In this document: positions 35,677 through 61,747 of the stretch, piece by piece
Position numbering within the stretch: the stretch's first letter is position 1
Layout: each line of letters opens with the position of its first letter
DNA from: a virus
Taxonomy: Duplodnaviria; Caudoviricetes
Direction: 5' to 3' (one strand)
Virus record (IMG/VR): IMGVR_UViG_2615840601_000001
DNA length: 64,000 nucleotides
Made by a program: the position numbers and the translations under genes
Notes under the pieces: model-generated
What the model saw: the letters and a program-made list of their open reading frames with translations, nothing else
Databases searched by the model: none
What the model was told of the DNA's origin: nothing

Positions 35677-36178
35677 GTGCTTAAGCCTCCGCTGCGGCCT
35701 GAGTTAGCAAAAAAAATCGCCAATACAGTTGTGCAAATCAAATGTTACATATTCAATCGTGGAAGAAAACTACGGTTGGGCTGTGCTTAAGCCGCTGCCT
35801 GTTTGAATCGCCGTTTAGGGAATGCAGTACGGCTGTCGGGCCGAACGCTCAAGGCAAGGAGAGGTGCTGCAGCTGCACACTGCTGATCCATCCGGTGACC
35901 CAGTCTAGTTGCAGCAATGGGCTCAACTCTACTCATGTATCGCAAAATTATTGGGCCTAGAGGGCCAAACCTAATTTCAAGAGACGACACATTGCGGCCG
36001 CTCTATCCACCCACGGTAAACGTCCGGTCGCAGCCCTAGGCGGACATGCCTCAAATTCGACTTATGCACTGCGCTAACCCGAAATGGATCGCCAAGGCTT
36101 CCACTTACCGGTCGTTTTATCATATGAATGTTGTATGCGTGGCGCTAGACAGTTTTACGCACTCAAGGAGAAGACTAT

Positions 36179-37387
36179 ATGCTTAAATCGCTTGAACTCT
36201 TTGCAGGTGCAGGCGGTCTTGTTCTAGGCACTGAACTGTCAGGTTTTCGTGCTGTTGCCGCCGTTGAGCACAACCGTTGGGCATGCGAGACGCTGATGGA
36301 CAACGCAACGCGTGAATACCCGCTTGTGCGAAATCTTCGAGTGGTCCAAAGCGATGTACGCGAATTCGATCTGGCTTCCATCCCCGAAGACATCGACCTA
36401 GTTTCCGGAGGCCCTCCATGTCAGCCATTTTCAATGGGTGGCCGTGCACGAGGTTTCAACGATGATCGGGACATGTTCTCGGCATTTGCAAGGATAGTCG
36501 CAGAGACGAAACCTCGAGCCTTTATTATTGAGAACGTTCGCGGTTTGACTCGACCAGCCTTTGAGAACTATGTCTCATATATCGAGCTCCGTATGAGTAT
36601 GCCCGAAGTGTTGCAGCGCCCTGGGGAGCTATGGCCTGACCATATGCGGCGACTAGAACGTGAGCGAACCTCCACTGGCGACAAGGGTATCCAGTATTCC
36701 GTGCTGAGGGAGCTTTTCGACGCTGCAGACTTTGGAGCACCACAGCGTCGGCATCGCGTATTCTTCGTAGGGTTTCGCCAAGATCAGAATGTTCACTGGA
36801 GTTTCCCTGAAGTCACGCACTCTCAAGATGGACTTATCTATGATCAGTGGGTTAGCGGGGAATATTGGGAACGGCATGGCATTTCAAGGAAGGAACGTGG
36901 GACTGTCCCCGATCGTCTTGTTAAACGAGTTGAGGCACTTCGCGGTCGAAACGATCATATTGGCGCGCCTTGGAGAACAGTTCGAGATGCACTGCGAACT
37001 CTACCTGAACCGCACAAGGATGGCAGCGATACGCTAGGTATTGCAAACCATCGGTTTCAGCCAGGTGCACGACCGTATCCGGGCCATACTGGGTCTCCCC
37101 TTGATGCTCCCTCAAAAGCATTGAAGGCTGGAGATCATGGAGTTCCTGGAGGGGAGAACATGTTGGTTCGCCCCGATGGTTCCTGTCGTTATTTCACCGT
37201 TCGTGAAGCAGCTCGAATTCAGGGTTTCCCTGATGGATATGTCTTCCATGGAGCGTGGTCCGAAACCATGCGGCAGCTTGGGAATGCGGTGCCTGTCATG
37301 CTCGCCCAAGCGATTGCGTCTTCCGTTGCGGAGCGACTTCTCGAGGCCGATGTAGAGACGCTGTCTAAATGCCAGAGGATGCACTGA
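36179..37387 (+). CDS. Type II R-M C5-cytosine methyltransferase
   Basis: LFAGAGG, GGPPCQPFS, ENVRG, QRRHRVF, FTVREAARIQGFP, LGNAVP. Confidence 0.95.
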   Translation: MLKSLELFAGAGGLVLGTELSGFRAVAAVEHNRWACETLMDNATREYPLVRNLRVVQSDVREFDLASIPEDIDLVSGGPPCQPFSMGGRARGFNDDRDMFSAFARIVAETKPRAFIIENVRGLTRPAFENYVSYIELRMSMPEVLQRPGELWPDHMRRLERERTSTGDKGIQYSVLRELFDAADFGAPQRRHRVFFVGFRQDQNVHWSFPEVTHSQDGLIYDQWVSGEYWERHGISRKERGTVPDRLVKRVEALRGRNDHIGAPWRTVRDALRTLPEPHKDGSDTLGIANHRFQPGARPYPGHTGSPLDAPSKALKAGDHGVPGGENMLVRPDGSCRYFTVREAARIQGFPDGYVFHGAWSETMRQLGNAVPVMLAQAIASSVAERLLEADVETLSKCQRMH

Positions 37388-38046
37388 TGGCGCAGGAGGA
37401 ATCAGTAACTAGAGAGTTTGAACCTTTCGACCCACTCGCTCGTACGAACCTCGCCGCATCAGCGGCAGAAGCTCTTTTGGATACCGCGCCTGAACCGCTT
37501 AACACCTTGGTGCCCTTTTGGGGGGCAGGCGTTTACGCGATCTACTATACTGGAGACTTTCCGGCATACAGCTGGATCGCGAAGTCCAACGACAATGGTA
37601 GGTGGCTCGCGCCTCTTTATGTGGGCAAGGCTATTCCAAGTGGAGGTCGCAAAGGTAGTTCAGGACTTGAACCCCCGCGTGGAAAGTACCTGTTCAATCG
37701 GTTGAACCAACATGCCGAAAGTGTCAGGGCGGCGGAAAACCTAAATATCGAGCATTTCCATGCTCGATTCCTTGTAGTTGTTGATATTTTTATCCCTCTC
37801 ATCGAGAATCTGATGATTTCACGTTTTGCTCCTATCTGGAACAATCCTGTGGATGGCTTCGGAAATCACGATCCAGGTGCAGGGAGACGAAAAGGAATGC
37901 GCCCGCGTTGGGATGTCCTACATCCCGGTCGGCGATGGGCAGACTTATGCGGTCAACGCCCAGAGACGCAGGAAAGCATCGCTAGGGAAGTCGAGGCATT
38001 GCTCTCAGCTCGTGCAGTGCCTGATCAAAGAATGATTCAACCGTAG
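37387..38046 (+). CDS. Eco29kI-family GIY-YIG restriction endonuclease
   Basis: GAGVYAIYYTG, LYVGKA, RLNQH, E..MI....P.WN..DGFGNHDPG.GR; TGATG-coupled to methylase. Confidence 0.9.
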   Translation: MAQEESVTREFEPFDPLARTNLAASAAEALLDTAPEPLNTLVPFWGAGVYAIYYTGDFPAYSWIAKSNDNGRWLAPLYVGKAIPSGGRKGSSGLEPPRGKYLFNRLNQHAESVRAAENLNIEHFHARFLVVVDIFIPLIENLMISRFAPIWNNPVDGFGNHDPGAGRRKGMRPRWDVLHPGRRWADLCGQRPETQESIAREVEALLSARAVPDQRMIQP

Positions 38047-38206
38047 TGTGCCGCTTAAAGAAATTTCCTGTTTAGTACGACGTCAAGTGTACAAAACCAG
38101 CGCTATCGAGCAGGAGTTGCTCCTAACTTTTAGCAATTGATCTGTAGTTTGCTCTGAATGACGACAAGAGCTATGGTGACTTGCGCATCATTGCTGTCCG
38201 TTTGGC

Positions 38207-38241
38207 GCAGTGAGCAGTGAGCAGTGAGCAGTGAGCAGTGA
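38207..38241. repeat. Heptamer tandem repeat (GCAGTGA)x5
   Basis: Five exact copies, non-coding. Confidence 0.95.
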
Positions 38242-38333
38242 GGGGAGTGAGACTCCCGAAGCTCAAAAGGTCCTCAAATGACCTTCTAGACCCCTTCAAA
38301 TCGGTTTCTTGATTTGTTTCTGATTTTGAGAAG

Positions 38334-38380
38334 TGGCAAAACCGCGTGAAAAAATTGGCAAAACCGCGCGAAACGCTACA
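38334..38380 (-). repeat. Right end of prophage 1: transposase-binding repeats and terminal CA
   Basis: TGGCAAAACCGCG at 38334 and 38356 (22-bp period), ending ...CGCTACA. Confidence 0.7.
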
Positions 38381-38410
38381 GTGAAAAAAATGGCAAAATG
38401 TGGGGGGACC

Positions 38411-38550
38411 TGTCATATTGCACAGACAAAAATCCCGCGAGTTGACAGCAGGTGATTGAATTTTATTGTTAATTTAGAATTTTGTGAAAATCGCGTCTTT
38501 GCACAAGAATGAGCGAATGATCGTGAGAACGACCATTTTCTTTGCACAAT
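38411..38550 (+). repeat. Left end of prophage 2: terminal TG and TTGCACA repeats
   Basis: TGTCATATTGCACA at 38411; TCTTTGCACAA twice (TTGCACA cores at 38499 and 38542). Confidence 0.6.
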
Positions 38551-38598
38551 CGTTCGGAAATGTTCAGCCGACGATCAAAAGAACCGTGATGCATTCTT

Positions 38599-39306
38599 TC
38601 AACGAGCGAAATGGTGGCCGCACCAGACGACTTTGCCGATCAATTGGAAGCCTTCAAGCTCATCTTTTCTAATGGTCTCCTTGGGAAACAAGGGGCTTTG
38701 ATTGAGGCTAATGACTTCAATATCGCCTGAAATGGTTTTTCGCAGCCACTTGATCCTTGCTTCTCCATTAAGAACGAAAGCGAAGATGCCGTCGCTAAGC
38801 GTCTGCTTTCTTTGATCAACCATTACCAAGTCGCCATCGCTAATTTGCGGCTCCATGCTTTCGCCGTTGGCAGACATGATGAGAAGCCCTTCTGCGGTAG
38901 AACGTCCCAAGCGTCGACGCAAGAATTCTGGGGTAAAAGGGATGTGGTCCAGAACCTCAGCCTTGCCTTGATTCCAGAAGCCATTACCTGCGCTTAGCGA
39001 GGCATCATAGCGTGGTATTCCAACGTAATCGGTCAGTTTCTGCGTTTGGTGCTCACCGGGATGGACTGGATCTACACCTTCTATGAGCCATTCAATTGTA
39101 ACATTAAATAGGCGCGCAATCCTCAAGGCCTTGTCTGCGCTAGGCATTCCATCTTCTAAATAATTTCTAAGCGCCCCTACTGAGATACCGCATTTATCGG
39201 CAAATTCAGCTCGGCTCATGTCTCCCATGAGCTTTTTTAAGCGTTCCGAGAATGTGCCATTGTTCATTTTTAGCAGCAGTGGCTCGAAAGCCATCCTTTT
39301 TCCCAC
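38599..39306 (-). CDS. CI/LexA-type repressor (HTH plus S24 peptidase)
   Basis: HTH, SAG cleavage-type site, GESMEP catalytic Ser, RIKWL Lys, IGKVVW. Confidence 0.9.
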   Translation of the reverse strand: MGKRMAFEPLLLKMNNGTFSERLKKLMGDMSRAEFADKCGISVGALRNYLEDGMPSADKALRIARLFNVTIEWLIEGVDPVHPGEHQTQKLTDYVGIPRYDASLSAGNGFWNQGKAEVLDHIPFTPEFLRRRLGRSTAEGLLIMSANGESMEPQISDGDLVMVDQRKQTLSDGIFAFVLNGEARIKWLRKTISGDIEVISLNQSPLFPKETIRKDELEGFQLIGKVVWCGHHFAR

Positions 39307-39329
39307 ATGACATGGCTTTATTAAACCAT

Positions 39330-39475
39330 TGATTTAGCGGTATGAAACCTAATTGCACTTGAAATTTAGCCAAATAAAACAATGGCCAGCTATATAAAGC
39401 TTTACTACTGGCTAAATATAGCTCATTCTGTCTTCATTCGTTAATCACAGCAGGCAGCCACTAAGGCTAACTGCA
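39330..39475. promoter_or_regulatory. Divergent promoter/operator region
   Basis: Repeated TTTAGC(C/G)/GGCTAA half-sites and AGCTATAT/ATATAGCT dyad. Confidence 0.5.
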
Positions 39476-39529
39476 AGGTTCAGAAAAAAGCGGCCTGTTA
39501 CAGCAGCCCGCTTTTCACGAGGAGACATT

Positions 39530-39832
39530 ATGCCGAAGCGTAAGTGGGACAAGTATGCAATCAAAGCCGAGCTTCACCGCCAGGGCATGACCTTCACCGA
39601 GCTTGCCGCTCGGCACGGATGTCATCGCACCAATATTAGCGTGGCGCTGGATCGCCCCAACTCCACCGGCGAGAAAGCCATTTCTGAAGCCATCGGCGTA
39701 CCTGCCGAAGAGCTATGGCCTGACCGTTACCCCAAGTCTGCAACGTCTCATCGAATTTACGATAGCAGACGACACGGCCCTTGTACCAGTCAGAAGTTTG
39801 CAACTGGCGCTGACAATGAGTGTGCGGCATGA
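39530..39832 (+). CDS. ner: Ner/Nlp-like DNA-binding protein
   Basis: WD..AIKAELHRQG...GEKAISEAIGVPAEELWPDRY. Confidence 0.92.
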   Translation: MPKRKWDKYAIKAELHRQGMTFTELAARHGCHRTNISVALDRPNSTGEKAISEAIGVPAEELWPDRYPKSATSHRIYDSRRHGPCTSQKFATGADNECAA

Positions 39833-40038
39833 GCCGGGCGGTGTCAGAGCGACTGTTTGATGCTGACAAGTGGGTCGCAGCCCTGTCGCGCTTCTATCAC
39901 TGCTTTGATTATTGGCCTGATCAAAATGGTCTACGCGATCTGGCAGGATTGATTTCCCTTGTTTGCTTTCAAGCCTTTCTTGCCTTGTGCTGCTGGATCG
40001 CCAGCGGCTGGGTCATCGTCTGGAGATTGAGCGAATGA
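39829..40038 (+). CDS. Small membrane protein
   Basis: ATGA overlaps at both ends, hydrophobic C-half. Confidence 0.5.
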   Translation: MSRAVSERLFDADKWVAALSRFYHCFDYWPDQNGLRDLAGLISLVCFQAFLALCCWIASGWVIVWRLSE

Positions 40039-40244
40039 CCTCTGAAGTCATGCGGGACTTCCATTCCCTCTTTTGGAGTACGCGCGATGGTGTTCGCCTC
40101 AAGAATTGGGCGCTATCTGGCAAAGGAGCATTGAGGATCGACCTCGAGATCACCGGTGCTCATGAACTGGGGGACTTGGTTGGACAGCTGAAGTCCATCG
40201 AAGCCGTCCAAGCCCAAAGCAAACCTCCTAAATCGAAACGCTAA
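40035..40244 (+). CDS. Hypothetical early protein
   Basis: GGAG RBS, ATGA coupling. Confidence 0.5.
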   Translation: MTSEVMRDFHSLFWSTRDGVRLKNWALSGKGALRIDLEITGAHELGDLVGQLKSIEAVQAQSKPPKSKR

Positions 40245-40259
40245 AGGTCCATCTTCCAC

Positions 40260-40718
40260 ATGGCAAAAGCTCACGGCGACAAGATGACTGGTGATCTTTT
40301 GAGTTGGGAACCACCCAAGGTGGCTCCCCGCTTTGAGGAAACGCGCGTCCGGGCTTCGTCTCTCGCTCGGAAGGTCTGTCGTGTTCTGGCCGAAGCTCTC
40401 AAAGAGGATGGAAGAAGCCGCGAGGACATTGCTGCTCAGCTTTCCGCATTCCTGGGCGAGGAAATAAGCCGGGACAGCATTGATGCCTGGACCTCGGAAG
40501 CCCGCGAGAACAACAACATCTCGACCTATCGCTTTTTTGCCCTCGCCCGAATTCTTGGCAGCGCCGAAATGCTCAACGAACTACTCACCGATACCCACAT
40601 GATTGTCGTCGACCAGAAGTATCAACCCCTCATCGAGCGCGAGCTGGCTCTCGAGAAGAAAGAAGCTCTGGAACAGTTCATCGCCAGTCGCGACAAGGAA
40701 TGGAGGCTGAGCAAATGA
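40260..40718 (+). CDS. Conserved Mu-like early protein, homolog of 2357..2821
   Basis: Shared D.(W/Y)T.E..E.(H/N).IS motif, position before MuA. Confidence 0.7.
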   Translation: MAKAHGDKMTGDLLSWEPPKVAPRFEETRVRASSLARKVCRVLAEALKEDGRSREDIAAQLSAFLGEEISRDSIDAWTSEARENNNISTYRFFALARILGSAEMLNELLTDTHMIVVDQKYQPLIERELALEKKEALEQFIASRDKEWRLSK

Positions 40719-42934: not shown

Positions 42935-42963
42935 TAGCAAAAACTTGAATAGGAGAATACTAG

Positions 42964-44656: not shown

Positions 44657-44901
44657 GCGAAACCTTGCTTGCGATGCAGGACTGGTTTGTCGGGACCTAT
44701 AACAATGACGGCTTCTCGCCAGCAGCGGCCCAGCGCTTTGCTGATCTGCTTCATGCGCAGTCCCAAAAGGCCAAACGGCTGGAAGCAGCGCTTCTGGCTC
44801 GGACCATTCCACTCACCAGAGAGCAGCTTGACGACCCCAAAATCGCGCTCTTCCCCACCTGGCCGGAAATGGCACGAAACCACCAAAAGAACGAAGGGTG
44901 A
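44650..44901 (+). CDS. Hypothetical early protein
   Basis: AGGAG RBS, operon packing. Confidence 0.55.
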   Translation: MLSETLLAMQDWFVGTYNNDGFSPAAAQRFADLLHAQSQKAKRLEAALLARTIPLTREQLDDPKIALFPTWPEMARNHQKNEG

Positions 44902-44931
44902 ATCTCACCCGCATTTGAAGGAAACCGAACC

Positions 44932-45555: not shown

Positions 45556-45566
45556 AGGAGGGAGGG

Positions 45567-46200: not shown

Positions 46201-46202
46201 GG

Positions 46203-46978: not shown

Positions 46979-47239
46979 ATGAACAAGCCTTTGCCCGCTG
47001 ATTTCGTGACGGATCATGCGCTCGTCCGCTATCTCGAACGCGTCCTTGAGATCGATCTTGATGGGGTTCGCCAGCAGATCGCGGACGAGACTGCGACGGC
47101 CATTGCCTCCGGGGCCGTTTCCATGCGCAAGAATGGCCTGCGCTACATCTTCAAGGGCGGGAAGGTCATCACCATTTTGCTGACATCCAACGAAATGGAG
47201 CGCATCAGGCGGCTTCGGACAGGAGAGAGCCATGACTGA
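46979..47239 (+). CDS. Conserved small phage protein
   Basis: VTDHALVRYLERV...GKVITI; GGAGG RBS. Confidence 0.65.
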   Translation: MNKPLPADFVTDHALVRYLERVLEIDLDGVRQQIADETATAIASGAVSMRKNGLRYIFKGGKVITILLTSNEMERIRRLRTGESHD

Positions 47240-47630
47240 GCTTCTGACCGAGGATATGGGAATGATCGCGGATATTGTTGGGCGCGAGGTGGTTGATGAG
47301 CTGATGACCAAGCTGCCTGGCATCGAGATCAAAGTGCCTCTTCACTGGACCGAAGACAACCCGCTCTCGCGCCTTGATCGCGAGACCGCCGACCTGCTGA
47401 TCCATCAGTTCCCCGGCGACAAATTCTATGTGCCAACCCGTCTGCGCAAAGCCGACAATCGGGCCGAAGCCCTGCGCCTGCACAAAGAGGGTTTCGGCTC
47501 AATCGAGATTGCCCTCGAACTGCGTATATCAGAACGCTATGTGCGCATGCTGCTGGCGGGCAAAGCCCTGCCAAGCCGTGTCGATGAGCGACAGATGGAT
47601 ATTGAGGATTTTCTGAGGCGAGTGGGGTGA
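47232..47630 (+). CDS. Mor/C-family late transcription activator
   Basis: IADIVG...LPGIEIKVP...FPGDKFYVP plus HTH IALELRISERYVRMLL. Confidence 0.85.
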   Translation: MTELLTEDMGMIADIVGREVVDELMTKLPGIEIKVPLHWTEDNPLSRLDRETADLLIHQFPGDKFYVPTRLRKADNRAEALRLHKEGFGSIEIALELRISERYVRMLLAGKALPSRVDERQMDIEDFLRRVG

Positions 47631-47834
47631 TCAGAACAAATGACGGCTCTGAGCCCATTTTGCATATTTTTGCAAGACGCATCAACGGCAGCTTTCTGCA
47701 CGAGGTTTTATATCCTAGCCTAAGATACACTTTTATGGGGCGCATCTTAAAATTAGCTGTTCGATAAAGAAGGGTCTTAGTGTCAGGGCAAAGGGAATAA
47801 TTCGAAGGACTGGTGCTCCCACATATATGAAAGG

Positions 47835-48092
47835 TCAGGCTTCTCGTTGTCGCCTAGCAATCTTAGCCAATATCCCTAGAACAACAGAGCCAAGCACCAT
47901 ATAGAAACCCCTTGTGACCATTTCGCCCGTTGTTGCGCCATATCGGTGGTCATAGAACGCTTGGATTTGCGCTAAGGCCTGCGGGTCATCAATCGGCAGT
48001 TTAGAGCCAAGCCAAAAACCCATGCCCAAAGAAAGCATTCCAATCACAAACCCTATCCAAGCGAGCACTGAACCAATACGAGCAAAAAACAT
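47835..48092 (-). CDS. Two-TM membrane protein (AT-rich moron)
   Basis: Two hydrophobic segments, antisense, AT-rich flanks. Confidence 0.65.
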   Translation of the reverse strand: MFFARIGSVLAWIGFVIGMLSLGMGFWLGSKLPIDDPQALAQIQAFYDHRYGATTGEMVTRGFYMVLGSVVLGILAKIARRQREA

Positions 48093-48345
48093 AATCTTCT
48101 CAATTATTGTAATAACGTGATGTCTACAGTAACATATCAAAAAGAGAGTGCGAATACTACATTACAACCAAAACAATAATCAACTTCCACTTTTTGCAAA
48201 AGTCATGACTTTTGCAATGGTACTCAGAGCAGAGAATAATAAGCTTAACATGGTCCCACAAGCGGGCATTGGCGTAGCTGCAACGAAAGCCCGCTTCGTC
48301 CGCAGAGTGTGAATTCGAGACGATCCTACCAAATAGCTTTCCCCA

Positions 48346-52419: not shown

Positions 52420-54035
52420 GCCGCAAATCCCGCCGAAACCGTGCTCGCCGCCGTGCCGTCCAGCAAGTGGCGCAACAGACTTCACAACAGGCCACACAGG
52501 CAAAGTTGCCCAAACAGGGTGGCCAGCTGATCGCCACGGCGCAGAATGACATCACCGTCCCCTTTTATTCGGACATCCTTGTGCCGCAGGATACGACCAT
52601 CAAGGAAAAGGGGCCACACAAGGGCCTCAAGCTCTATGACGAGGTCATGAAGGATGGTCGGGCCAAGGCCACACTTAGTAAGCGCTACAGCAAGATCACC
52701 CGGCGCGAATGGATGGTGGAGGCGGCAAGCGAGGATACAAAGGATATCGAGGCCAGGGACGGCATGGAGGAGATCCTCAATGCCCTGCCGTTTGACGCCA
52801 TTTGCAAGGAACTCTCCAAAGCCATTCTTAAGGGCTTTGCCATCTCGGAAATCGTCTGGGGCCGCAATGTGGACGGGCATGTGGTGCCGGAGAGGATCAA
52901 GACCCACGACCCAAGCCGCTTTGTCTTTGACAAGGACTGGAACCCGCGTCTTCTGGTGCCAGAGAATTCCATCGACGGGATCAAGCTGCCCGTTCGCAAG
53001 TTCATTGTCCATCGGTTCGATGCCGAAGGAAACAATCCTTACGGCATGGGGCTCGGCTCCGTCCTTTTCTGGCATGTGCTGTTCAAGCGCGAGGGCGTTT
53101 CCTTCTGGATGAAGTTCCTCGACAAGTTTGCCGCTCCCATTCCGTTCGGCAAATATGCGGTCGGCACCCCCAAGAAAGAACAGGACCAGTTGCTCAACTC
53201 ACTGATGGCGATGGTTCAGCAGGGCGCGCTTGTTGCCCCCATTGGCACAGAGGTCAGCTTTCTGGAAGCAGCCCGCTCAGGCAATGCCTCCTATGAGGAA
53301 TGGTGCCGGTTCTGGGATGAGCAGACCTCCGAGGTGGTTCTGGGCAGCACCCTGTCGACCAGCCTCAAGGGGCAAGGGTCTCGCGCTGCGTCTCAAACCC
53401 ATGCAGAAGAAACCGACAGCATTATCGATGATGATTGCGACCAGCTTTCCGATACGCTCAACCCGACCCTCATCAAATGGATCTCAGAGCAGAACTGGCC
53501 CGATGCCAACCCGCCGACCGTGTGGCGTCCGCGCCCTCGCAACGAAAGTGAAGAGGAAGACCAGAAGGCAAAACGGGCCACTCGACAGCAGTCAGAAATC
53601 CGCTCTCTTGATGCTGCCCGCAAACAGGGCTTTGAACCCAAGGATGTCCAGGACTGGCTCTCCTCTGTCTTCGACGTTGAAATGGTGCCGGTCGAGCTGA
53701 CCACACCTCAACCGGCAGAGCCAGAGGACAACGCGACATTTGCTGATGATGACAGCCCGATTGCTCATCTGATTGATCAGTTGGAAGAGCTGGCGGGACC
53801 GCAGCAACAAGCATGGCTCGATCATATCCAGGAACGCCTGTCGAAAGTGTCCAGCTTCTCGGAGGCCTCTCAGGCCTTGCTGGAGCTGTCTGGCGAACTG
53901 GAGATCGATCCAATGGGCCGGGTGATGGGCAACGCCATCGCCCTTTCTGAGATCACGGGCCGATCCGATGTCTTTGACGAGACGGGCATCTATCCTTCCG
54001 GGGCGCGTGGCTCAAAAAAAAAGACCAAAATCTAG
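52416..54035 (+). CDS. Portal protein (DUF935 / Mu gp29-like)
   Basis: NPYGMGLG, W.KFLDKF..P...GKY, SEVVLGSTL. Confidence 0.9.
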   Translation: MSRKSRRNRARRRAVQQVAQQTSQQATQAKLPKQGGQLIATAQNDITVPFYSDILVPQDTTIKEKGPHKGLKLYDEVMKDGRAKATLSKRYSKITRREWMVEAASEDTKDIEARDGMEEILNALPFDAICKELSKAILKGFAISEIVWGRNVDGHVVPERIKTHDPSRFVFDKDWNPRLLVPENSIDGIKLPVRKFIVHRFDAEGNNPYGMGLGSVLFWHVLFKREGVSFWMKFLDKFAAPIPFGKYAVGTPKKEQDQLLNSLMAMVQQGALVAPIGTEVSFLEAARSGNASYEEWCRFWDEQTSEVVLGSTLSTSLKGQGSRAASQTHAEETDSIIDDDCDQLSDTLNPTLIKWISEQNWPDANPPTVWRPRPRNESEEEDQKAKRATRQQSEIRSLDAARKQGFEPKDVQDWLSSVFDVEMVPVELTTPQPAEPEDNATFADDDSPIAHLIDQLEELAGPQQQAWLDHIQERLSKVSSFSEASQALLELSGELEIDPMGRVMGNAIALSEITGRSDVFDETGIYPSGARGSKKKTKI

Positions 54036-55303
54036 CTGCCTTTGCCGACATAGGGCCGTTTGAAGAGGCTCTGGACTTCCATCGCCAGAAGGTGCGTCTT
54101 CCGACCCGCGCCTGGTCCGATTTGCTCCATCATGGTCATGACCGGGCCTTTGTCGTGGCCGGGGCACAGAAGGATGCCATGCTGGAAGACTTCCAGATGG
54201 CCATTGATGACGCCATCGCAAAGGGCATGCCGCTCAAGGGATGGCTCGACAAGGATGATACCTATCATCCCGGCTTTCTTGATCGCTTTGACGAGATCGT
54301 CAAAAAGCACGGCTGGGATTACAAGGGCGGACGCAACTGGCGTGCCCGCGTCATCTATGAGACCAATCTCAAAACCGCCTATGCTGCCGGTCGCTACAAG
54401 CAGATGACCGATCCGGCCACGCTTAAGGCCTTTCCTTACTGGCAGTATAAGCATGCCTGGGAACGCATTCCGCTTCATCCGCGCGAAGAGCATGAAGCGT
54501 GGGATGGGCTGATCCTTCCGGCTGATGATCCATGGTGGCAGACCTATTACCCGCCCAATGGCTGGAAATGCGGCTGTGGCGTGCGGCCAGTCAGTCGGGC
54601 AAAGCTCAAACGCGTTGGTAAGGAAGGCCCCGATACCGCCCCTTCCATCCAGTACCAACAGAAACTGGATCCCGGCACAGGTGACCCAATCGACTATCCC
54701 GCTGGCGTCGATATGGGATGGGCCTATGCCCCAGGCCGGACATGGGCAGATGGACTGGTGCCAAGGGAACTGCAAAGATCAGCAGGCAGGCAAATGGAAT
54801 TGCCGGAAATGAACAATCTGCCCGCCCTATCAGGTGGTTCCAAGCCTGTGATGGCTCCACTTCTTCCTACTGGTCAAACACACGAATATTATGTGTCACA
54901 GTTCCTAGAGGCTTTTGATGCTGATCTTGATGAAGAAAAGAGCTTTCGGGACAAGGCGGGCAATATTGTTATTCTCAGCAGGAAACTATTCCAAAGGGCG
55001 GACGGTTCCAGCAAACTGAACAGCACCCGTGCTCCCGCCCTTAAGCAGCTCGCCGAAGCCATCATGGATCCAGATGAAATCTGGGTTGACTGGGAATGGC
55101 ATGATGTGAGGAAGGAATGGATACTGAAGCGCCGTTATCTGCGCTCAGCTCCCAATCTTGCCGGGTTGCTTGTGTTCGAATGGTCCCAGCATGGCTGGTC
55201 AGCGACCACAGCCTACAATGCAGCACGTGGTCGCAAGCTCAAACCAAACCACAATCAAATCAACAGCTGGCGACGGGGCCATTTGTTATGGCAGCGCAAA
55301 TAA
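54017..55303 (+). CDS. MuF protein with PBECR2-like C-terminal domain; probably entered by -1 frameshift from portal (first in-frame start GTG 54092)
   Basis: AFVVAGA, RARVIYETN, DDPWWQTYYPPNGWKCGC; C-terminal AIMDPDEIW...RRY...TTAY...RRGHLLW. Confidence 0.85.
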   Translation, partial: KKDQNLAAFADIGPFEEALDFHRQKVRLPTRAWSDLLHHGHDRAFVVAGAQKDAMLEDFQMAIDDAIAKGMPLKGWLDKDDTYHPGFLDRFDEIVKKHGWDYKGGRNWRARVIYETNLKTAYAAGRYKQMTDPATLKAFPYWQYKHAWERIPLHPREEHEAWDGLILPADDPWWQTYYPPNGWKCGCGVRPVSRAKLKRVGKEGPDTAPSIQYQQKLDPGTGDPIDYPAGVDMGWAYAPGRTWADGLVPRELQRSAGRQMELPEMNNLPALSGGSKPVMAPLLPTGQTHEYYVSQFLEAFDADLDEEKSFRDKAGNIVILSRKLFQRADGSSKLNSTRAPALKQLAEAIMDPDEIWVDWEWHDVRKEWILKRRYLRSAPNLAGLLVFEWSQHGWSATTAYNAARGRKLKPNHNQINSWRRGHLLWQRK

Positions 55304-55372
55304 AAATGGCAGCCGGTGCGAACTGCCATTTGCGCAATCGAGTGGAGACACGCACCTGTCCCCGATTGCATC
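55300..55372 (-). ncRNA. Putative kissing-loop small RNA convergent on MuF
   Basis: Two hairpins with complementary loops (GGTGCG/CGCACC); extended -10 TGCTATATT upstream on minus strand; U-tract after second hairpin. Confidence 0.6.
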
Positions 55373-55406
55373 AATGTAAATATAGCACCCCTGGAGGGCT
55401 TTTTAA

Positions 55407-55910
55407 ATGCCATTCCTCAGTTTCAGATATGACTATGCCTCCGCAGATCAGGAGATCCGCCGTCTGATCGACAAGATCGAAGACAAGGCCGCTATTCATC
55501 GTGTCATCGGCATGGCGCTCTATGATCAGACCATGGACCGGTTCGAGCGTGAAGAGAGCCCGGATGGCAACAAATGGGCACCGCTCGCCCCACTTACCCT
55601 CTCTAACCGCCGCCAGCCCAGGGGCATCTTGCGCGACAGCGGTGAGTTGATGCGCTCCATCCATTTTGAAGCCTCATCCTCCCGCACGGAGGTCGGCACC
55701 AATCTCAACCATCCAAAGGTCTGGGTCATGCAGCGCGGCGCAACGATCAAGCCGCGCCGGTTCAACTCCCTGCGCATCCCTGTCTCACGCGGGGCTGAAG
55801 GCTATGTCTTCAGCAAGGGCGTGAAGATCCCCGCACGGCCTTATATCGGTATCGGACGGCAGGATGAAGAGGTGATCCGGGAGGAGCTGGAGGGGTATTT
55901 TGGGGACTGA
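55407..55910 (+). CDS. Mu gpG-like virion morphogenesis protein
   Basis: RFEREESPDGNKWAPL, ILRDSGELMRSI, IPARPYIG. Confidence 0.9.
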   Translation: MPFLSFRYDYASADQEIRRLIDKIEDKAAIHRVIGMALYDQTMDRFEREESPDGNKWAPLAPLTLSNRRQPRGILRDSGELMRSIHFEASSSRTEVGTNLNHPKVWVMQRGATIKPRRFNSLRIPVSRGAEGYVFSKGVKIPARPYIGIGRQDEEVIREELEGYFGD

Positions 55911-56054
55911 TGATATGGTCGGAACGGCCCAGAGCCGCCGTTCGCCAAGACCCTCTCACCAAAAGCCAGCGTCCCCAAAGCAGGCATACGTGGCTGTGCT
56001 CCGGTTCAGGCTTCTTCGAAAAGCCAGCAAGCAAGTCGAGGCGTTTCAATGTTC

Positions 56055-56573
56055 TTAATAAGGCAGTTTTAAAACGAAATGAAAGAGATTCCAAAACTTG
56101 CTTTCACCCGAATAGACCCGTCCTTCGAACCATTCAGCCGCTTTATAAACGGCATTGAAGCCCGCTCGTTCGTAGATGATATTGGCTTCATCAAAGCTGA
56201 TGCATTTTGCTATTGGACTCGCTGCCCAATCATCATCTAGGCCCAATAGGGTCACGTAAATGGTGCCGTTATCATTCAATAGGGATTTTAAGCGACCGAG
56301 GAACTCCTCGAGGGAATAGGTGATATGGTGAGAAACGAGAGATGCAACGATAAGATCGTAGCGCTGAGTTGTGGTAAAATCTTCAAATCTGCTTTGAATG
56401 AAATTGATCTCTTTGTCTGAAGCCAATTCTTCAAAAACCACAGGATCAATTGCATCAACGTTATGGCCCTTATTTGCGAAATACCTCGCCATCCCTCCCT
56501 CTCTTGCACCAACATCTAGCACTCTACCTGGTTTAGGTAATTCAATTCTCTCTATAATATCGGCGCGTATCAT
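56055..56573 (-). CDS. Class I SAM-dependent methyltransferase (cargo)
   Basis: RVLDVGAREG, VDAID, YDLIV, LLNDNG.I. Confidence 0.85.
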   Translation of the reverse strand: MIRADIIERIELPKPGRVLDVGAREGGMARYFANKGHNVDAIDPVVFEELASDKEINFIQSRFEDFTTTQRYDLIVASLVSHHITYSLEEFLGRLKSLLNDNGTIYVTLLGLDDDWAASPIAKCISFDEANIIYERAGFNAVYKAAEWFEGRVYSGESKFWNLFHFVLKLPY

Positions 56574-56950
56574 ACAGGCATCTTTCTCGACTGTTTGTTA
56601 TTTGCAAGGCTGTCTCTTGCGGTGTCTTGAAGAAACCATAGCCTGTACGAGGAAAACGTCTCGAGCCAGCGTTTAGTTTTGCTAACTCACAGCTGCAAAC
56701 GGTCCTGCCACTTTTAGTGTCCAATTTGGGCTCGAACCGGACTGGTGCAGTGCATCATCATGCGACAACGCTCATCCAGGTTGGTGATTTGCAATCGCGG
56801 CCCCTTAAGAGACACTCAGCGATAAGCTGTCATACTGCGGCGCTCCCCTCCCATCCGGTCATTTGCCGCAGATGTGCAATCTCAGGGGAGATGCATATTC
56901 ACGATGCGGACTTTATGGAACTACAGCGCGGTCTGTGGCAAGATCTTGCA

Positions 56951-57673
56951 ATGATAGAATTCCGCTCCCTTTCCGATGACCATCCCGACCTCGCGCATTC
57001 CCCGCTGCTGCACGGTGCGCTCCTTACACTGCAATATGCGCAGAAGCACGGATCAATCGCTCTGACCAAATCTAAGGCCTTCAAGCGCATTTTCGTCCAT
57101 TGGGCCGTCGAGAATTTCAATTGGCCAGGCAAAAGCGCAGAAGAGATGTTCCGCTATAACAAGGTAATCAATGAATATGAGTTTCCTCCGCTCGAGATTA
57201 TCCATTTCCTGCTCATCTCCCTGCGCCTGGGACGTCACTTCAAGGGTGAGTTTCGACTGACCAAGCGGGGCATAAAACTGGCGCAATCTCCTGGCCATCT
57301 GTTTGCCGAGTTGATCCCATACTTTGTGCTTCAGATGGATCACTCTTCTTATGCACGCTTTGAAAACCGTCCCTTCGGGAAGTGGGAGGTCTGGATGAAT
57401 GTGATTAACGTCGAAGCCGATCAAGGCACGACCGAGGCTGCCTTGTTCGAAATCTTCTACGGTGAGCCGCAAGATTGGCACACTGCAGGGTGGAGAGAGA
57501 TGGCTGTGTTTTCAGCCTGTGTACTTCGTCCGCTCGAATGGGCTGGGTTGCTGGTGGAGACACGTGAAGAAGGAGGCAGCAAGCCTGTATGTCATGTGTT
57601 CAAAACCCCACTCTGGCGCAGCGCGATCAACCTTGATACCGACAACATGCTGCGGCCAATATCCGTTCAATGA
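56951..57673 (+). CDS. Hypothetical cargo protein
   Basis: 240-codon ORF from MIEFRSLSDDHPDL; no motif recognised. Confidence 0.65.
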   Translation: MIEFRSLSDDHPDLAHSPLLHGALLTLQYAQKHGSIALTKSKAFKRIFVHWAVENFNWPGKSAEEMFRYNKVINEYEFPPLEIIHFLLISLRLGRHFKGEFRLTKRGIKLAQSPGHLFAELIPYFVLQMDHSSYARFENRPFGKWEVWMNVINVEADQGTTEAALFEIFYGEPQDWHTAGWREMAVFSACVLRPLEWAGLLVETREEGGSKPVCHVFKTPLWRSAINLDTDNMLRPISVQ

Positions 57674-57863
57674 GAGATGCTTTTTCGGCTACCAAGATGT
57701 GGCGCTTTTAGCGTTTGCGGCCCCAAGCGGTCGAGTGCGATGCGTAATGATGAAAGCCGCTCATCTAGGCTTGCGTTTTGCATTCGCGGCCCAAAGCTGC
57801 CTTTCGTGCACCTCGCAATGAACGTCCGGTTTGTCAGCCGAAGCGGAAATGCTAACTTAGATG

Positions 57864-57891
57864 GGTGGCAAGCGTTCGCTCTATTGCCACC
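57864..57891 (-). terminator. Hairpin just 3' of DRT3 ncRNA
   Basis: GGTGGCAA/TTGCCACC stem with inner AGCG/CGCT; lacks a strong U-tract. Confidence 0.45.
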
Positions 57892-57920
57892 ACTTTGTGA
57901 CACTTTCGGATCGAAAAATG

Positions 57921-58044
57921 GATAGTTGGGCGTGCCTGTATGTGTGTGGTCCGCAAAAGCGTAAACTTAGAAGGAACGCAGAGGCCTAGTAATGGGTCCC
58001 GTCGCGTCCAGCTCAGATATCTCAGGCAACCGCCCACAATTATC
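57921..58044 (-). ncRNA. DRT3-associated ncRNA with ACACACA tract
   Basis: Directly after drt3b stop; 5' TGGGCG..TGCCTG pairs with 3' CAGGCA-CGCCCA; ACACACA (57941-57947) adjacent to the 3' arm. Confidence 0.8.
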
Positions 58045-59979
58045 TTAGACCGCCGAGTATACAGGCTGCAACTGCTTTCTTCTCAAAAAATGAGACGTTC
58101 TTCCGGCGTTCCAATCGACGAATGCAACGTGTTTTGCGAGCTTTTCGATATCATCGTCCGATAGGTCATCGACGCCACAAACTTCCTTTATTAAGGCCTT
58201 TCTTTTGCTAACCTTAATATAGGGACATCCTATAATATCGCTAAACATCAGGTATACCTCTGAACTAGTCCTGAGTTCTGTTTTGTTTCTACGAACCTGT
58301 TTGAGAGCCAACTTGGAGATGGTTTCGAGCGCCCTATCAACATCAACAGACGGCGATGCTTGCGCCAACAGAAAAATCATCGCAATAAATGAAAAGTACC
58401 CAATGCTTTTCCTTTTAAGCAACATGGTGCACAGCTCAATAACAGGGGGCTGGGATAAAAACAGGTCACTATTAACCGAAGCACCAAGCACAAGCAGATT
58501 ACAAATTTCTAAGGAAATGTCTTTCTCAATCTTTTCCGGTTTATAGGTAGCAACTAGCTCCGTTATCTCATAAACGAGATAGCTATCTAGCGCTTCAGCT
58601 TCTGACAATCCGATTGCAGTCTTGAAATTCTTTAAGCTCTCGAGAATTTGGAAAGATTTATAGATCGGAGCAACGCGAAAATCTGACGCCAAAGAATAGA
58701 ATAGAATTCGCAGAATGGATCTAACTCTATTAATGGCGTCAATTTTTGTTTTAGTCGTAAAACTTTCTGCCGACTTTAATACAGCTTTAACGGCCTTCCC
58801 TATCTGAAAATAGATCGAGCCGGTTACTTCGTTGAAAGTTGCATCTGTATCACGAACAACTAGCCTTAACTCTTCAAGTAGGCTTCGCATGTTGCGGCGT
58901 ATCTCTGTTTGTTCGTCCTCGTCATCAACTAACGGCCTTTTTGCTTCGGCTAGCAACCTAGTGGTAATATCTCCGATGCCTTGTTTTGCTCGGGTGATGT
59001 TGGTCACAAAAGGGCGGCGCAAATTTTCAAGTTTTCCCTCGTTCGGATACAGCTTATACTCTTCTAAACAAGTTTCTACAGCTCGATTCAGTTCGTCGAG
59101 TACAGCTTCATTCCGTGTAAAGAGGAAAAAGTCATCGACATATCTACGGAAAGTGTAATCACGCCCCTCGCGAAGGTGTTTATCCATTTTTAAGATTATA
59201 TTTCTATCAATCTTCTGAAAGATTATCTCCGCAAAGACTCGTGATATCTCGGGTCCAACAACAATTCCATTTGTTTCATTGTAATTGGACCGTTGCATCA
59301 GTGCATCGAACCGGCCCTCGAAGGTATACTTGTTTGCTTGGGCTTTAGAATAAGGTTTATCCTTCACAGCCCATGTCACTGAATGGGTATAGATGTTAAA
59401 AAAGCACTTAGTTACATCAAGCTTTCTGAGATACTGAAATCGGCTCTCTAGCCTTAGAAGTTCGTTAGAGCCATAAAACTTGTCGAGCAAATTGTATTTT
59501 TTGACTGAAAAAAAGGATGGAGCAAAATTAATATCTAAGCGTCCATCTTCCGGCGCTACATGTGCTAGTCCAAGCTTCTTCGCATTCCCTGCTTTCTTCA
59601 ATTCTTCCTTCGAAACTTCCGGCAAAACTCTGTACGGAGCTCGAAGCGAGTATCTACTTTCACTGCATTCCGAAATGATTGTATTCGAATATCCTACTAA
59701 AAAAGTTGCCATTCTGATCTGGTGAAGTGGATGAACAATACTGAGTGTATTGAAGCCTCTGGCTCCTTTGCGAATCTGGTAGCTGAAAGGAATTGTGTAA
59801 GTCTCTGGCCTCAAAGGCCTCCTGTAGTCCCCATTTAAAAACTCTTGTGCTTTAACAGAAAGCCGAGACTTTCTTAGCTCGGATACGAAGAGAAATTCGT
59901 TGGAAAAGGTGACAGGAACCTCGTATGGCAGTGTTTCAGTCAAGAGAGGTCGCAATTTCCGTGCGTGTGGTTCAAGCAT
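58045..59979 (-). CDS. drt3b: Antiviral reverse transcriptase Drt3b-like
   Basis: LTETLPYEVPVTFSN N-terminus, LDVTKCF.NIYTHS..WA, NYNETNGIVVGPEISRVFAEII, RYVDD, helical C-terminus. Confidence 0.88.
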   Translation of the reverse strand: MLEPHARKLRPLLTETLPYEVPVTFSNEFLFVSELRKSRLSVKAQEFLNGDYRRPLRPETYTIPFSYQIRKGARGFNTLSIVHPLHQIRMATFLVGYSNTIISECSESRYSLRAPYRVLPEVSKEELKKAGNAKKLGLAHVAPEDGRLDINFAPSFFSVKKYNLLDKFYGSNELLRLESRFQYLRKLDVTKCFFNIYTHSVTWAVKDKPYSKAQANKYTFEGRFDALMQRSNYNETNGIVVGPEISRVFAEIIFQKIDRNIILKMDKHLREGRDYTFRRYVDDFFLFTRNEAVLDELNRAVETCLEEYKLYPNEGKLENLRRPFVTNITRAKQGIGDITTRLLAEAKRPLVDDEDEQTEIRRNMRSLLEELRLVVRDTDATFNEVTGSIYFQIGKAVKAVLKSAESFTTKTKIDAINRVRSILRILFYSLASDFRVAPIYKSFQILESLKNFKTAIGLSEAEALDSYLVYEITELVATYKPEKIEKDISLEICNLLVLGASVNSDLFLSQPPVIELCTMLLKRKSIGYFSFIAMIFLLAQASPSVDVDRALETISKLALKQVRRNKTELRTSSEVYLMFSDIIGCPYIKVSKRKALIKEVCGVDDLSDDDIEKLAKHVAFVDWNAGRTSHFLRRKQLQPVYSAV

Positions 59980-61261
59980 TCAACCAAGCCTTTCTTATTT
60001 CGGAAACAGTGGCACGCTTGAAGCGCACGGTCATCTTGTTTGTGAACCCCTTGTAAAAAGAGAGGTTCTTTAACTCTGCCAACTGCTCTGGCGTGAACGA
60101 AGCTTGAATTTCCGTTTTGAACTGGCTGTTACCTCCCCATAAAAGGGATGATAAAAACCCATCTAACTCTTTCAGTTCGATTGGAGCAACTGAGACATTC
60201 TCAGGACCTTGCCGTCTGTATTGATACAAGCCGCATTTCCGATAATTGAAGTATATTCCGGTCCTGATTCTGGCTTTTTTCGATCCGTGAGTATGACCCG
60301 TCTTTCTAATTTCAAAATTGCTGGTGAGAAACTTCACTCGGTTTAGCAGCAAAGCAGCGTTCTTGTCTTTTTGGAATGCTTTCAAGCTAAGTATGATACG
60401 TGTCTTTCTGACTTTGATTTTGTCTTTAGATATCTTGACCAAGACTTGTCGGCTCATTCGAGCTCGAATTCCATTTGAGCATTCGAACGAATAACCGAGA
60501 TAGGTGAACGAGCTGGCTGGCTTTTTGCAAGGATTTTTGTCTGAATCTGGTATCGACTCTAGAAAAGCATCTTCCGTCTTTGAGTTCAGTTCGAAATTTG
60601 GGCTTAGGATCTCCTTGATTTTGGCAAGTGCTGGATCGACCTTTTGCGTTGAAAACAACAAAATGTCATCTGCGAAGCGAAAATATCGGTAAACCCCTTC
60701 GATCTCCATGACTTCTCGATCAAATTTACGCAGCGCAAGTTCGGCGAAGGTGGTGCTGAGGCCAAGTCCACGAGGGATGCCAGATTGTGTTCCCCCAAGT
60801 AGGCCCGACGTTTCTAGAACTCTCAGGACTGTCTTTACGTGTGAGTGTGTCTTTGTTGAACTAAGAATCTCTGCCAGTATTGCCTTTGCATCTACATTTT
60901 CGAAGAAAGATTTTATATCACACCGCAATACATAAAATGGTGAAGCGTCGAACAGAGTTTCTAAGACGCCGTTAACCACAGTGTCGCGGCTAGCCGAGCT
61001 AACACCATATTGTTTGTTCAAAGACCTCGCGGTCGCTCGTAGAGCGAGCGCACCGTGAAAGTTGTTAATCAAAAGCAGCTTTCGCCCTTTGGAAATCGGG
61101 ACCGAGCGGTGATGAAAAGTGATTGTGCCATCATCCACCTGTTCGCGTATCTGAGAAAGAAGAGCCTCGCAATCCAATGCCAAATCGACACCAAACTTCC
61201 TGGAGTCGCCGACCCGAATACAGCTTCTAAGATATTTTTCAGAAAATGGACTAATCTGCAT
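59972..61261 (-). CDS. drt3a: Antiviral reverse transcriptase Drt3a-like
   Basis: DIKSFFE, GIPRGLGLS, RFADD, FTYLGY, R.KFLTSN, GIYFNY; 8-nt overlap with second RT. Confidence 0.88.
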   Translation of the reverse strand: MQISPFSEKYLRSCIRVGDSRKFGVDLALDCEALLSQIREQVDDGTITFHHRSVPISKGRKLLLINNFHGALALRATARSLNKQYGVSSASRDTVVNGVLETLFDASPFYVLRCDIKSFFENVDAKAILAEILSSTKTHSHVKTVLRVLETSGLLGGTQSGIPRGLGLSTTFAELALRKFDREVMEIEGVYRYFRFADDILLFSTQKVDPALAKIKEILSPNFELNSKTEDAFLESIPDSDKNPCKKPASSFTYLGYSFECSNGIRARMSRQVLVKISKDKIKVRKTRIILSLKAFQKDKNAALLLNRVKFLTSNFEIRKTGHTHGSKKARIRTGIYFNYRKCGLYQYRRQGPENVSVAPIELKELDGFLSSLLWGGNSQFKTEIQASFTPEQLAELKNLSFYKGFTNKMTVRFKRATVSEIRKAWLNA

Positions 61262-61747
61262 TATTGTTTACTTCTTATCAAAAGGTTGTAAATATTTCCG
61301 ATACAATTTGATCCGCATGCAAGTTAGTTGAGCGATGTAAGCATAACAATACCAGAAATTGCACAAAAACAGCAATGTGACTAAAACTGTCTTCGGTGCA
61401 GATAGCAGCAAAAGACTGCCTCCCGCCCGACCATGACGCAGCTATCAAAGCGAGCTTAAAGTTCCCGAGAATGTCCGCTTCTGCTGGCTACCATCAGGAT
61501 TTTGCATCTGCGGGAAATGTCCGCAATCCGCCCACAGGCGTCGATCATCAAGCTTTCCGACAATTTGTCTCTGTCGCGTTTTGTACCCCCTCCCAGCCCC
61601 CACCATACCCAAAATTTCCGCGAGCCGCGTTAAAGGCGCGTTAGAAAGCCATTGAGGGCCTATTGTTGCGGTTGGGTTGCCTCTCATCTGCCGTTGGTGA
61701 TAGAAGGGCGATAGCTTCCCCCCAAAAATTGACTTCATATGCCGCCC

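Follow-up and report, generated by a model that had tools for sequence, protein, structure and literature searches.

A modular repeat with a 22-bp core, its candidate tyrosine recombinase and possible cassette exchange in a Mu-like prophage

Comparison with described cassette systems

Integrons carry small accessory genes in arrays, set apart from one another by a repeated site with RYYYAAC/GTTRRRY boxes, and a tyrosine recombinase is associated with them. The pdif modules of Acinetobacter plasmids are discrete gene modules between short 28-bp XerC/XerD dif-like sites, which are served by housekeeping Xer proteins encoded elsewhere, and the tyrosine-recombinase genes of RIT elements are bounded by long imperfect inverted repeats. 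Here we describe a repeat family, called A, in a 64,000-nucleotide stretch of DNA (IMG/VR record IMGVR_UViG_2615840601_000001, Caudoviricetes). The whole stretch is called the window and positions refer to it unless they are marked as genome positions; comparison genomes are given by G numbers. The window contains two Mu-like prophages in tandem, and in the second of them the 22-bp core of A bounds accessory genes, among them the reverse-transcriptase defence system DRT3. We propose that site-specific recombination, acting in trans at A cores, supports a non-integron type of cassette exchange, and give this a probability of about 0.55. An earlier note on the same DNA had listed ten short strings at gene boundaries and suggested that they are recombination sites, or scars left by integron-like gene capture in trans. 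We can confirm this observation in part, and the reading as recombination sites has partial support; the real repeat feature is, as we see it, more interesting than the one that was listed, while its mechanism is argued by inference.

The likeness to integrons lies in small accessory genes arrayed between copies of a repeated site, in an associated tyrosine recombinase, in cargo in which GNAT acetyltransferases and unknown genes are frequent, and in units common to several genomes that are bounded inside a short conserved core, the last being an analogy since the core is a different one. Sites without a neighbouring recombinase gene are common, so the action would be in trans. However, the term integron-like holds by analogy only. 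There is no integron integrase IntI: in the whole genome the NCBIfam model TIGR02249 gives at best 83.3 bits against a cut-off of 265. The enzyme here has about 210 residues, of which the C-terminal ~155 match the PF00589 catalytic-domain model. The site is conserved in sequence, about 190 bp long and devoid of RYYYAAC/GTTRRRY boxes and of attC-type hairpin covariation. Moreover, modules of one to three genes stand in either orientation with their own regulators, and the arrays are not anchored at a recombinase/attI/Pc platform. According to Cury et al. (2016, PMC4889954), 243 alpha-proteobacterial genomes contained no integrons, In0 or CALIN elements.

Compared with pdif modules, the site here is a 22-bp core within a larger modular repeat and the recombinase is a small dedicated one. 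RIT elements have three recombinase genes in tandem, named RitA/B/C in PMC8138268, whereas here there is a single gene of about 210 codons, and solo modules are dispersed and bound gene modules. A limited literature search found no description of a comparable recombinase-core cassette system.

Repeat A and the breakpoints in its core

When positions 53000-64000 were searched against 61 related genomes, the segments 56694-56806 and 61428-61533 recurred often outside prophages. The first segment belongs to A and the second to a separate family, B, which is treated below. BLAST found six further copies of 56694-56806 in the window's own genome, and 57736-57796 resembles one of them. An independent profile, made from these six non-window copies only and run on the whole genome, matches 56696-56817 and 57719-57806 (E values in Table 1). 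Its iteration converges at 24 copies in this genome with E<1e-3, about half of them clustered at genome positions 550-557 kb and 665-683 kb. Within the genus there are dozens of copies per genome. A search of a plasmid collection with a full A copy gave no match.

The repeat is about 190 bp long (~187 profile positions, with an extension of ~40 bp) and consists of a 5' part, a 22-bp core of the form CGGCCC-N3-GCNGNCATTCGCC and a 3' part. Reading frames differ among the copies and indels are not multiples of three, so A is non-coding. The 72 copies classified in regions of four genomes comprise 24 full copies, 31 that are 3'-only, 11 with the 5' part plus core and six others. The 3'-only copies start sharply at profile positions 95-110 and reach the 3' end, the 5'-part copies stop at positions 100-150, and the two partial forms overlap in the core. 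By analogy, the three forms resemble POP', BOP' and POB' attachment sites, and such a pattern would be expected of hybrid attachment sites. A core matrix built from 56 distinct non-window copies reaches 25.7 at 55925 (+), the best score in the window, followed by 24.5 at 57787 (+), 12.3 at 47635 (-) and 9.6 at 36031 (+), with nothing above 9.1 elsewhere in the window. The core near 56800 is missed by this ungapped matrix owing to a 1-nt insertion. With nhmmer, the copy 56696..56828 has E 2.1e-31 within the window, and 55925..55990 has E 8.6e-4 (0.0098 with the independent profile).

The strong copies lie in a 5.7-kb island of prophage 2 (55911-61555), which has gpG on one side and the following late gene on the other. 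The order is gpG, core, methyltransferase gene, 5' part with core, 260-aa gene, 5' part with core and DRT3, which makes three directly repeated cores. The 260-aa gene has homologues of 83-92% identity in G010, G016, G013, G004 and G007, and its protein has no match in Pfam, NCBIfam or PADLOC.

Regarding the exact limits of the shared DNA, every resolved junction lies inside the 22-bp core. Homology to G014 extends as far as 55944, where the first core has its 3' end. G010 carries the 260-aa gene with 92% identity, and its homology stops at 57806, which is the 3' end of the third core. A 7.5-kb contig of another organism (organism A; runs X3 and X5) differs from 56802-57797 at only four positions, and its flanks are unlike on both sides. 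The left end of this match falls between ...CAATCGCGG and CCC and the right end directly after CGGCCCAAAGC, both inside cores. A contig of a further organism, B, ends at 57792, directly after CGGCCC. Away from the island, G008 and G016 have in common a block of 4.2 kb with three modules, which showed no differences where the junction windows were aligned. Here the two genomes become identical exactly at the GCGGCCC of a 3'-only module, the DNA before it being unrelated, and cease to be so just past CGCGGCCCTT. The expectation that breakpoints of cargo gain and loss fall in the motif thus fails for the motif of the earlier note and stands for the core of A.

The place behind gpG is a hotspot in related prophages. 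In those of G014, G018, G013, G005, G017 and G019, both gpG and the late gene downstream of it are retained, and the DNA between them (1.0-5.6 kb) is different. Directly after the gpG stop there is an A 3' module in G014 (E 3e-17), G013 (E 9e-10) and G018 (E 7e-7), which together with the prophage in the window makes four of the seven, with different cargo of 1.0-5.7 kb. Variable cargo at fixed late-gene positions, here including DRT3, is what is seen at prophage defence hotspots such as morons and those of P2/P4 type. Unlike at those, the left edge at gpG is in these four prophages a repeat of the host genome that is tied to a recombinase, and we know of no report of a recombinase-linked repeat at the edges of such hotspots. 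In phage Mu, the corresponding interval between G and I holds the strong gyrase site.

An accumulation of A copies was seen in G008, a sister species. There, 40 copies, 30 of them on the + strand, divide a stretch of ~95 kb (G008:C1:1655001-1750000) into modules of one to three genes. Among the 53 open reading frames (ORFs) scanned, six encode GNAT acetyltransferases, three LysR regulators and 17 have no family; SDR, AKR, APH, methyltransferase and GmrSD genes are also present. The modules stand in both orientations and their regulators include LysR, AraC, AsnC and TetR types. No recombinase gene adjoins these arrays. The stretch looks like a cassette array.

The short recombinase and the competing explanations

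By sequence, the product of genome 680025-680663 is a tyrosine recombinase (Table 1). The earlier note had stated that no recombinase is nearby, and this is true for the window; however, the genome encodes this one with the same core beside it. The gene is flanked by inverted A 3' modules, whose cores are at genome 679980-680001 and 680821-680842. A second copy (88% identity), probably frameshifted, is followed by A modules, and within the genus A modules adjoin the recombinase gene at eight of nine loci. The recombinase element or its modules are matched in 18 of 20 genomes of the genus, and in G016 and G013 the 260-aa island gene is a neighbour of the recombinase gene. With the IntI model the enzyme scores 21 bits; its gene was the one weak match that is located between two inverted A 3' modules, and all 14 control genomes likewise give sub-threshold TIGR02249 matches.

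Between Hyphomicrobiales, Rhodobacterales and other orders, the recombinase keeps 74-94% identity. All 8000 scored candidates of the family are at E<=1e-10, and in species-representative genomes 534 of 603 candidate stretches encode a relative; the sources name the family only as a generic integrase. Many metagenome contigs with the recombinase gene measure only 0.7-1.2 kb, which would fit a mobile unit present in repeated copies, and some species have several recombinase copies per genome. In other genera, the exact core pattern is found at one fixed place past the recombinase stop at 30 of 80 loci. At 48 of 79 loci the core matrix scores at least 12 between 22 and 27 bp past the stop (35 bp at one locus), where the background rate is 0.0018 per 65-bp window. 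At recombinase loci of other orders, no other portion of A can be detected. Given this fixed position after the stop in other genera, the core is a conserved partner of the recombinase far beyond the genus that has the full A.

Site-specific exchange would work as follows. The ~210-aa recombinase would act in trans and recombine DNA at 22-bp cores. Units that reach from core to core, with one to three genes, would be excised as circles and integrate at other cores, and they would be exchanged between genomes and into prophage hotspots, including the core after gpG. The observed basis is the repeat family, its clustering in accessory-gene arrays, the breakpoints inside the core and the pairing of core and recombinase across Alphaproteobacteria. 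From this we infer that the recombinase acts on A cores and that the methyltransferase, 260-aa gene and DRT3 modules arrived by way of core exchange. A general alphaproteobacterial cassette system, in which this widespread enzyme and core move one-to-three-gene modules in trans, build long arrays in some genera and provide docking sites in temperate Mu-like phages for defence systems such as DRT3, is put forward more tentatively, at rather less than even odds.

Several points speak against such exchange. The inverted cores around the recombinase gene predict inversion there and not excision, and in other genera an inverted core upstream of the gene is found at 10 of 76 loci. The 3'-only copies (31) outnumber those with the 5' part plus core (11) almost threefold, which is unexpected under simple integration. 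An A module after gpG was not found in G005, G017 and G019, three of the seven related prophages, and the moron hotspot of five relatives, described below, gave one weak match to A modules (E 0.013). The core shows no obvious dyad symmetry; the inverted repeat of the A consensus, which is internal and not terminal (14 pairs, 32 copies), is 66.9% paired compared with 67.0% after shuffling and has no excess covariation, and RNAalifold gives no consensus structure for A. The core is the most conserved stretch of A, so ordinary short-homology crossovers would also cluster there. In the sequencing runs, which were covered as assembled contigs, no joints that would mark excision or circles were seen. 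Finally, comparison genomes of one genus are non-independent samples, and the gene calls are crude longest-ORF calls.

The strongest competitor, although unlikely, is that A is a passive, genus-specific mosaic intergenic repeat of the BIME, RIME or NIME kind. In this case RecA-dependent or short-homology exchange would move the modules with no dedicated enzyme, and the recombinase gene would be a passenger. The copies of A lie mostly downstream of genes, often between convergent genes and in both orientations, and they lack structure and covariation; modules with their own regulators in either orientation fit as well, as does the position of crossovers in the best-conserved block. However, at several junctions one flank has no A homology and identity starts from GCGGCCC after unrelated DNA, so only ~10-20 bp of common sequence would be available there. 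Also, the fixed distance between the recombinase stop and the core in most loci of other genera is hard to explain for a random passenger.

It is improbable that A is similar to a miniature inverted-repeat transposable element (MITE). The autonomous element would be the ~1-kb recombinase unit with its inverted 82-bp modules, and A copies would be non-autonomous derivatives in intergenic DNA, found at cargo boundaries merely as a result of the non-coding DNA there. Inverted terminal modules do flank the recombinase gene, its short metagenome contigs look as if the repeat breaks assemblies, and some species have several copies of it. What this explanation leaves unaccounted for is why near-identical blocks common to genomes start and end inside cores, and why there are sharp 5'-only and 3'-only forms sharing the core; besides, terminal inverted modules occur at a minority of loci, as the upstream cores show.

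A regulatory role is still less probable. A and B would then be promoter, operator or terminator modules travelling with accessory genes, and the core beside the recombinase gene would be a terminator or operator. The frequent location of A directly after stop codons and the upstream antisense position of B (below) agree with this. The core, though, is not a G+C-rich hairpin with a T run, no RNA family or conserved structure was matched (Rfam gave no window match at gathering thresholds and, for six repeat loci, one sub-threshold match to TLS-PK1 with 19.7 bits against 80), and the location of breakpoints inside the core is not explained by regulation alone.

The ten strings themselves are all present on the + strand where the earlier note had placed them. 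Their supposed shared consensus, TGCA-n3/4-GCA-nn-AAYGDCVG, fits one of the ten: string 47671 is the sole exact match in the window, compared with none in 100 shuffles. With up to two mismatches there are nine matches in the window, among which 47671 is the only listed site on the + strand, and with up to three there are 57, overlapping two of the ten on that strand (47671 and 61503). Seven of the 57 fall in the six gaps that hold the strings, where 1.7 would be expected by length, but the consensus was derived from the same gaps. Ungapped motif discovery in these gaps, with five widths and four statistics, stayed within the null throughout, the fraction of nulls reaching the real value being 0.15-1.0. 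The nulls were 60 dinucleotide shuffles and 60 real intergenic sets each, matched in length, and the gaps were cut at ORF boundaries, which removed most of the copy 56696-56828. The likeness of 36019 and 57821 is the best gapped pair (score 25). This score is reached in 3% of 300 shuffles of the pair and by some pair in 15 of 100 shuffled sets when all 15 gap pairs are counted; the 10-mer common to both, AACGTCCGGT, occurs 6+3 times in the genome where ~5 per strand are expected. With blastn-short, the gaps matched the genome at chance level except for the prophage end repeat 38317-38380 and one 19-mer, and a repeat search within the window found no family holding the listed strings. On the window alone, the ten-member family with its consensus is not above chance.

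More specifically, the strings are at least three unrelated things, on both strands: A, B and chance. String 56717 is inside a strong A copy, and 57806 begins where another ends, at the third core, and runs toward the DRT3 RNA region, which fills most of that gap. For 35911, 47671, 61396, 61469 and 61503, no match to A was obtained at E<=30-50. The last three of these belong to a real repeat, but to B; 35911, 47671 and 36019 are unsupported. Restriction of the family to the + strand holds for the three strong copies only, and the marginal fragments at 47639 and 48278 match on the - strand. Significant copies are confined to the gpG-proximal island and are thus not in both prophages as was claimed. 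Separation of the HNH gene from the restriction-modification genes by copies of the family is not borne out (36019 is not significant and 35911 has no match); flanking of the membrane moron by such copies is reduced to the two marginal fragments. A single ten-member + strand family of attC-like sites in both prophages is hardly credible, as its existing strings, its one exact consensus match and the 3% pair score are outweighed by a consensus that fits one string, motif statistics at chance, equal pair scores in shuffled sets, the lack of an integron integrase and the split of the strings into A, B and chance.

The prophages, their other cargo and repeat B

Coordinates of the features are collected in Table 1.

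Table 1. Features in the window and the recombinase gene in the same genome
Feature	Position	Strand	Remarks
Window	G000:C1:1778049-1842048		position in its own genome
Core-like 22-mer in the HNH/restriction-modification gap (string 36019)	36028..36049	+	matrix 9.6; nhmmer E 18-19; not significant
Marginal A-like fragment (covers string 47639)	47635..47699	-	matrix 12.3; nhmmer E 1.1-3.1
Small hydrophobic moron, ~85 aa from second Met	47835..48140	-	between Mor-position and lysis genes
Marginal fragment like extension of A 3' module (covers string 48278)	48279..48320	-	nhmmer E 3.5
A core (55925-55946) and degenerate 3' part, left edge of island	55925..55990	+	15 bp after gpG stop (55910)
S-adenosylmethionine-dependent methyltransferase, first island module	56055..56573	-	Pfam Methyltransf_23 E 2.2e-15; weak PADLOC mad2
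A 5' part and core (core start ~56800, 1-nt insertion; holds string 56717)	56696..56828	+	E 1.6e-29 genome-wide
Core-to-core unit with one gene (56891-57673, 260 aa, no family)	56802..57797	+	organism A contig matches span
A 5' part and core (core 57787-57808)	57719..57808	+	E 3.8e-9; matrix 24.5; string 57806 starts at its end
Probable DRT3 non-coding RNA (3' limit approximate)	57850..58044	-	ACACAC motif, GTGTGTG near 57943-57949 on + strand
DRT3: Drt3b 58045-59979, Drt3a 59972-61261	58045..61261	-	PADLOC E 2.5e-160 and E 4.4e-97
Repeat B (strings 61396, 61469, 61503), just inside right edge of island	61396..61533	.	strand not assigned
Tyrosine recombinase, 212 aa	genome 680025-680663		1.1 Mb from window; PF00589 E 7.1e-18, residues 46-198 of 212

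The DRT3 assignment follows from the adjacent UG3 (Drt3a) and UG8 (Drt3b) reverse transcriptases. The ACACAC template motif lies ~100 nt past the Drt3b stop. The sequence around it, with CCACACAC-TACAGGCACG, is conserved behind Drt3b in a Pseudooceanicola locus as well, and nine of nine aligned DRT3 loci contain CACACAC. According to PMC13174585, the DRT3 non-coding RNA is located downstream of DRT3b, with a conserved ACACAC loop. It is probable that 57850..58044 is this RNA, and with its Drt3a/Drt3b tandem and downstream non-coding ACACAC region the system is an ordinary member of its type.

At the moron hotspot of prophage 2, the first marginal fragment comes right after the stop (47630) of the gene in the Mor position (47232-47630), which has weak helix-turn-helix matches only. 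Positions 47637-47699 have short matches in G015 and G011 (E 2e-5 and 7e-5), in or beside bona fide A copies. Around the second fragment, 48285-48303 is identical in 19 of 19 positions, reversed, to genome 680927-680945 (E 0.004), which lies outside the recombinase element, 25 bp from its right module. In G017 (35 bp, 97%) and in G015 there are matches to 48260-48320, each adjoining A copies. We consider 47639 and 48278 as probable decayed A fragments. Scans of Pfam, PADLOC and NCBIfam found no family for the moron. Five relatives carry other cargo of 1.2-3.1 kb here, with breakpoints at 47612-47641 and 48298-48345, and seven related prophages have 0.7-3.1 kb of different DNA after the Mor-position gene.

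Repeat B stands at the other edge of the island, where the phage backbone resumes at 61556 (G014) or at 61606-61626 (other relatives). Copies of B (61428-61533) in the same genome are at genome positions 1995719-1995824 (76%, E 4e-15) and 550902-550937 (E 3e-4), and there are more in relatives; in G013, 35 bp that match 61498-61532 lie just as far from the right breakpoint there. All three copies in the window's genome adjoin defence systems: DRT3, a CD-NTase pair and a patatin-cyclase operon of CBASS type (cyclic-oligonucleotide-based antiphage signalling). In relatives, B adjoins a CD-NTase pair, SIR2-HerA and three genes that either have no role in defence or are unknown. B is 90-260 bp upstream of the gene and antisense to it in five of five copies in relatives and in seven of eight overall. 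On the other side, three copies of B have the end of an IS1182/IS5-type transposase gene at a distance of 70-170 bp. A link between A and B was considered because of similarity by eye (GAATGTCCGC-type motifs ~47 bp apart, reversed) and dropped, as nhmmer gave no match at E<=30. The motif GAATGKCCGC is ~3-fold over-represented in the whole genome, with 76 of its 85 occurrences inside ORF calls.

Both prophages are Mu-like transposable prophages, having MuA/MuB-type transposition genes and Mu-type late genes. They lie end to end with 18 bp between them. Judging from the named nearest homologues, the host is probably an alphaproteobacterium.

Prophage 1 starts ~850 bp upstream of the window (window coordinate -847) and combines Mu-type transposition and head genes with a P2-type tail (domain matches DDE_2, Phage-MuB_C, Mu gp27, Portal_Mu, Mu-like_Pro and gpT). 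It ends in an end-like repeat terminating in ...GCTACA at 38380, just inside of which the 7-bp unit GCAGTGA is repeated four times in tandem (38208-38240). The cargo at its right end consists of a Com-like zinc ribbon, a C5 methyltransferase, an HNH protein and an Eco29kI-type restriction-modification pair. The segment 33583-38258 has in G002 only short matches of 67-81% inside the restriction-modification genes, and in the G017 relative it is replaced by ~5.2 kb of other DNA. A further end-like repeat is internal to the prophage at 33490-33521 (33.5 kb), 5' of this cargo. The Com-like zinc-ribbon gene overlaps the start of the C5 cytosine methyltransferase gene (33588-34677), at the place that com-mom occupies in phage Mu, and a Com-controlled methylase may here replace Mom. 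Behind its late-gene blocks, prophage 1 has copies of a hairpin (...GTAACATnTGTTACCGGCTTTTTT / CTGATATCTGATACCGGCT) at 8508-8540, 16298-16330, 21185-21203 and 26836-26854, which probably serve these blocks as intrinsic terminators of a shared type.

The left end of prophage 2 is at 38399, the point from which five relatives are homologous. Its gene order is repressor, Ner-like gene, MuA, MuB, GemA, Mor-position gene, small membrane moron and muramidase, followed by terminase, portal, MuF with a PBECR2 nuclease, gpG and the island. The domain matches are Mu-transpos_C/rve, AAA_22/TniB, GemA, DUF3164, Portal_Mu, Phage_Mu_F and Phage_tail_S. The MuF-like head protein (54092-55303) carries the PBECR2 (barnase/EndoU/colicin-like) nuclease domain at its C-terminus. 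In the presumed scaffold/protease and major-head region there are long frames on the - strand (61735-63393 and 63412-64416) and on the + strand (61663-62985 and 63439-64377); none of them has a Pfam match, and the + strand is favoured by synteny with Mu only. The late genes gp36, gp37, tube, tape measure and baseplate extend past the window to ~82.6 kb, where by eye the prophage end adjoins sequence resembling a tRNA gene.

As to the prophage ends, CTTTGCACA repeats are present at the left end of prophage 2 (38399-38560) and inverted at 82.5 kb (82490-82580), and are probable transposase sites. The terminal 14-mer ...CGCGAAACGCTACA occurs at window coordinates 38367, 82549, 82565 and 2238948, on the + strand every time. 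That the listed strings could be Mu transposase-binding sites at prophage ends was rejected, because the end repeats are different (CTTTGCACA-type in prophage 2, GGCAAAACC-type in prophage 1) and lie elsewhere, at 38.3-38.6, 33.5 and 82.5 kb.

If exchange at A cores takes place, a different recombinase-site pair doing a comparable job would bear on the absence of integrons in Alphaproteobacteria. It would also offer a concrete mechanism by which prophage hotspots gain defence cargo, with DRT3 here standing behind three directly repeated cores. Assigning a partner site to this recombinase would improve the annotation of mobile DNA in marine Alphaproteobacteria.

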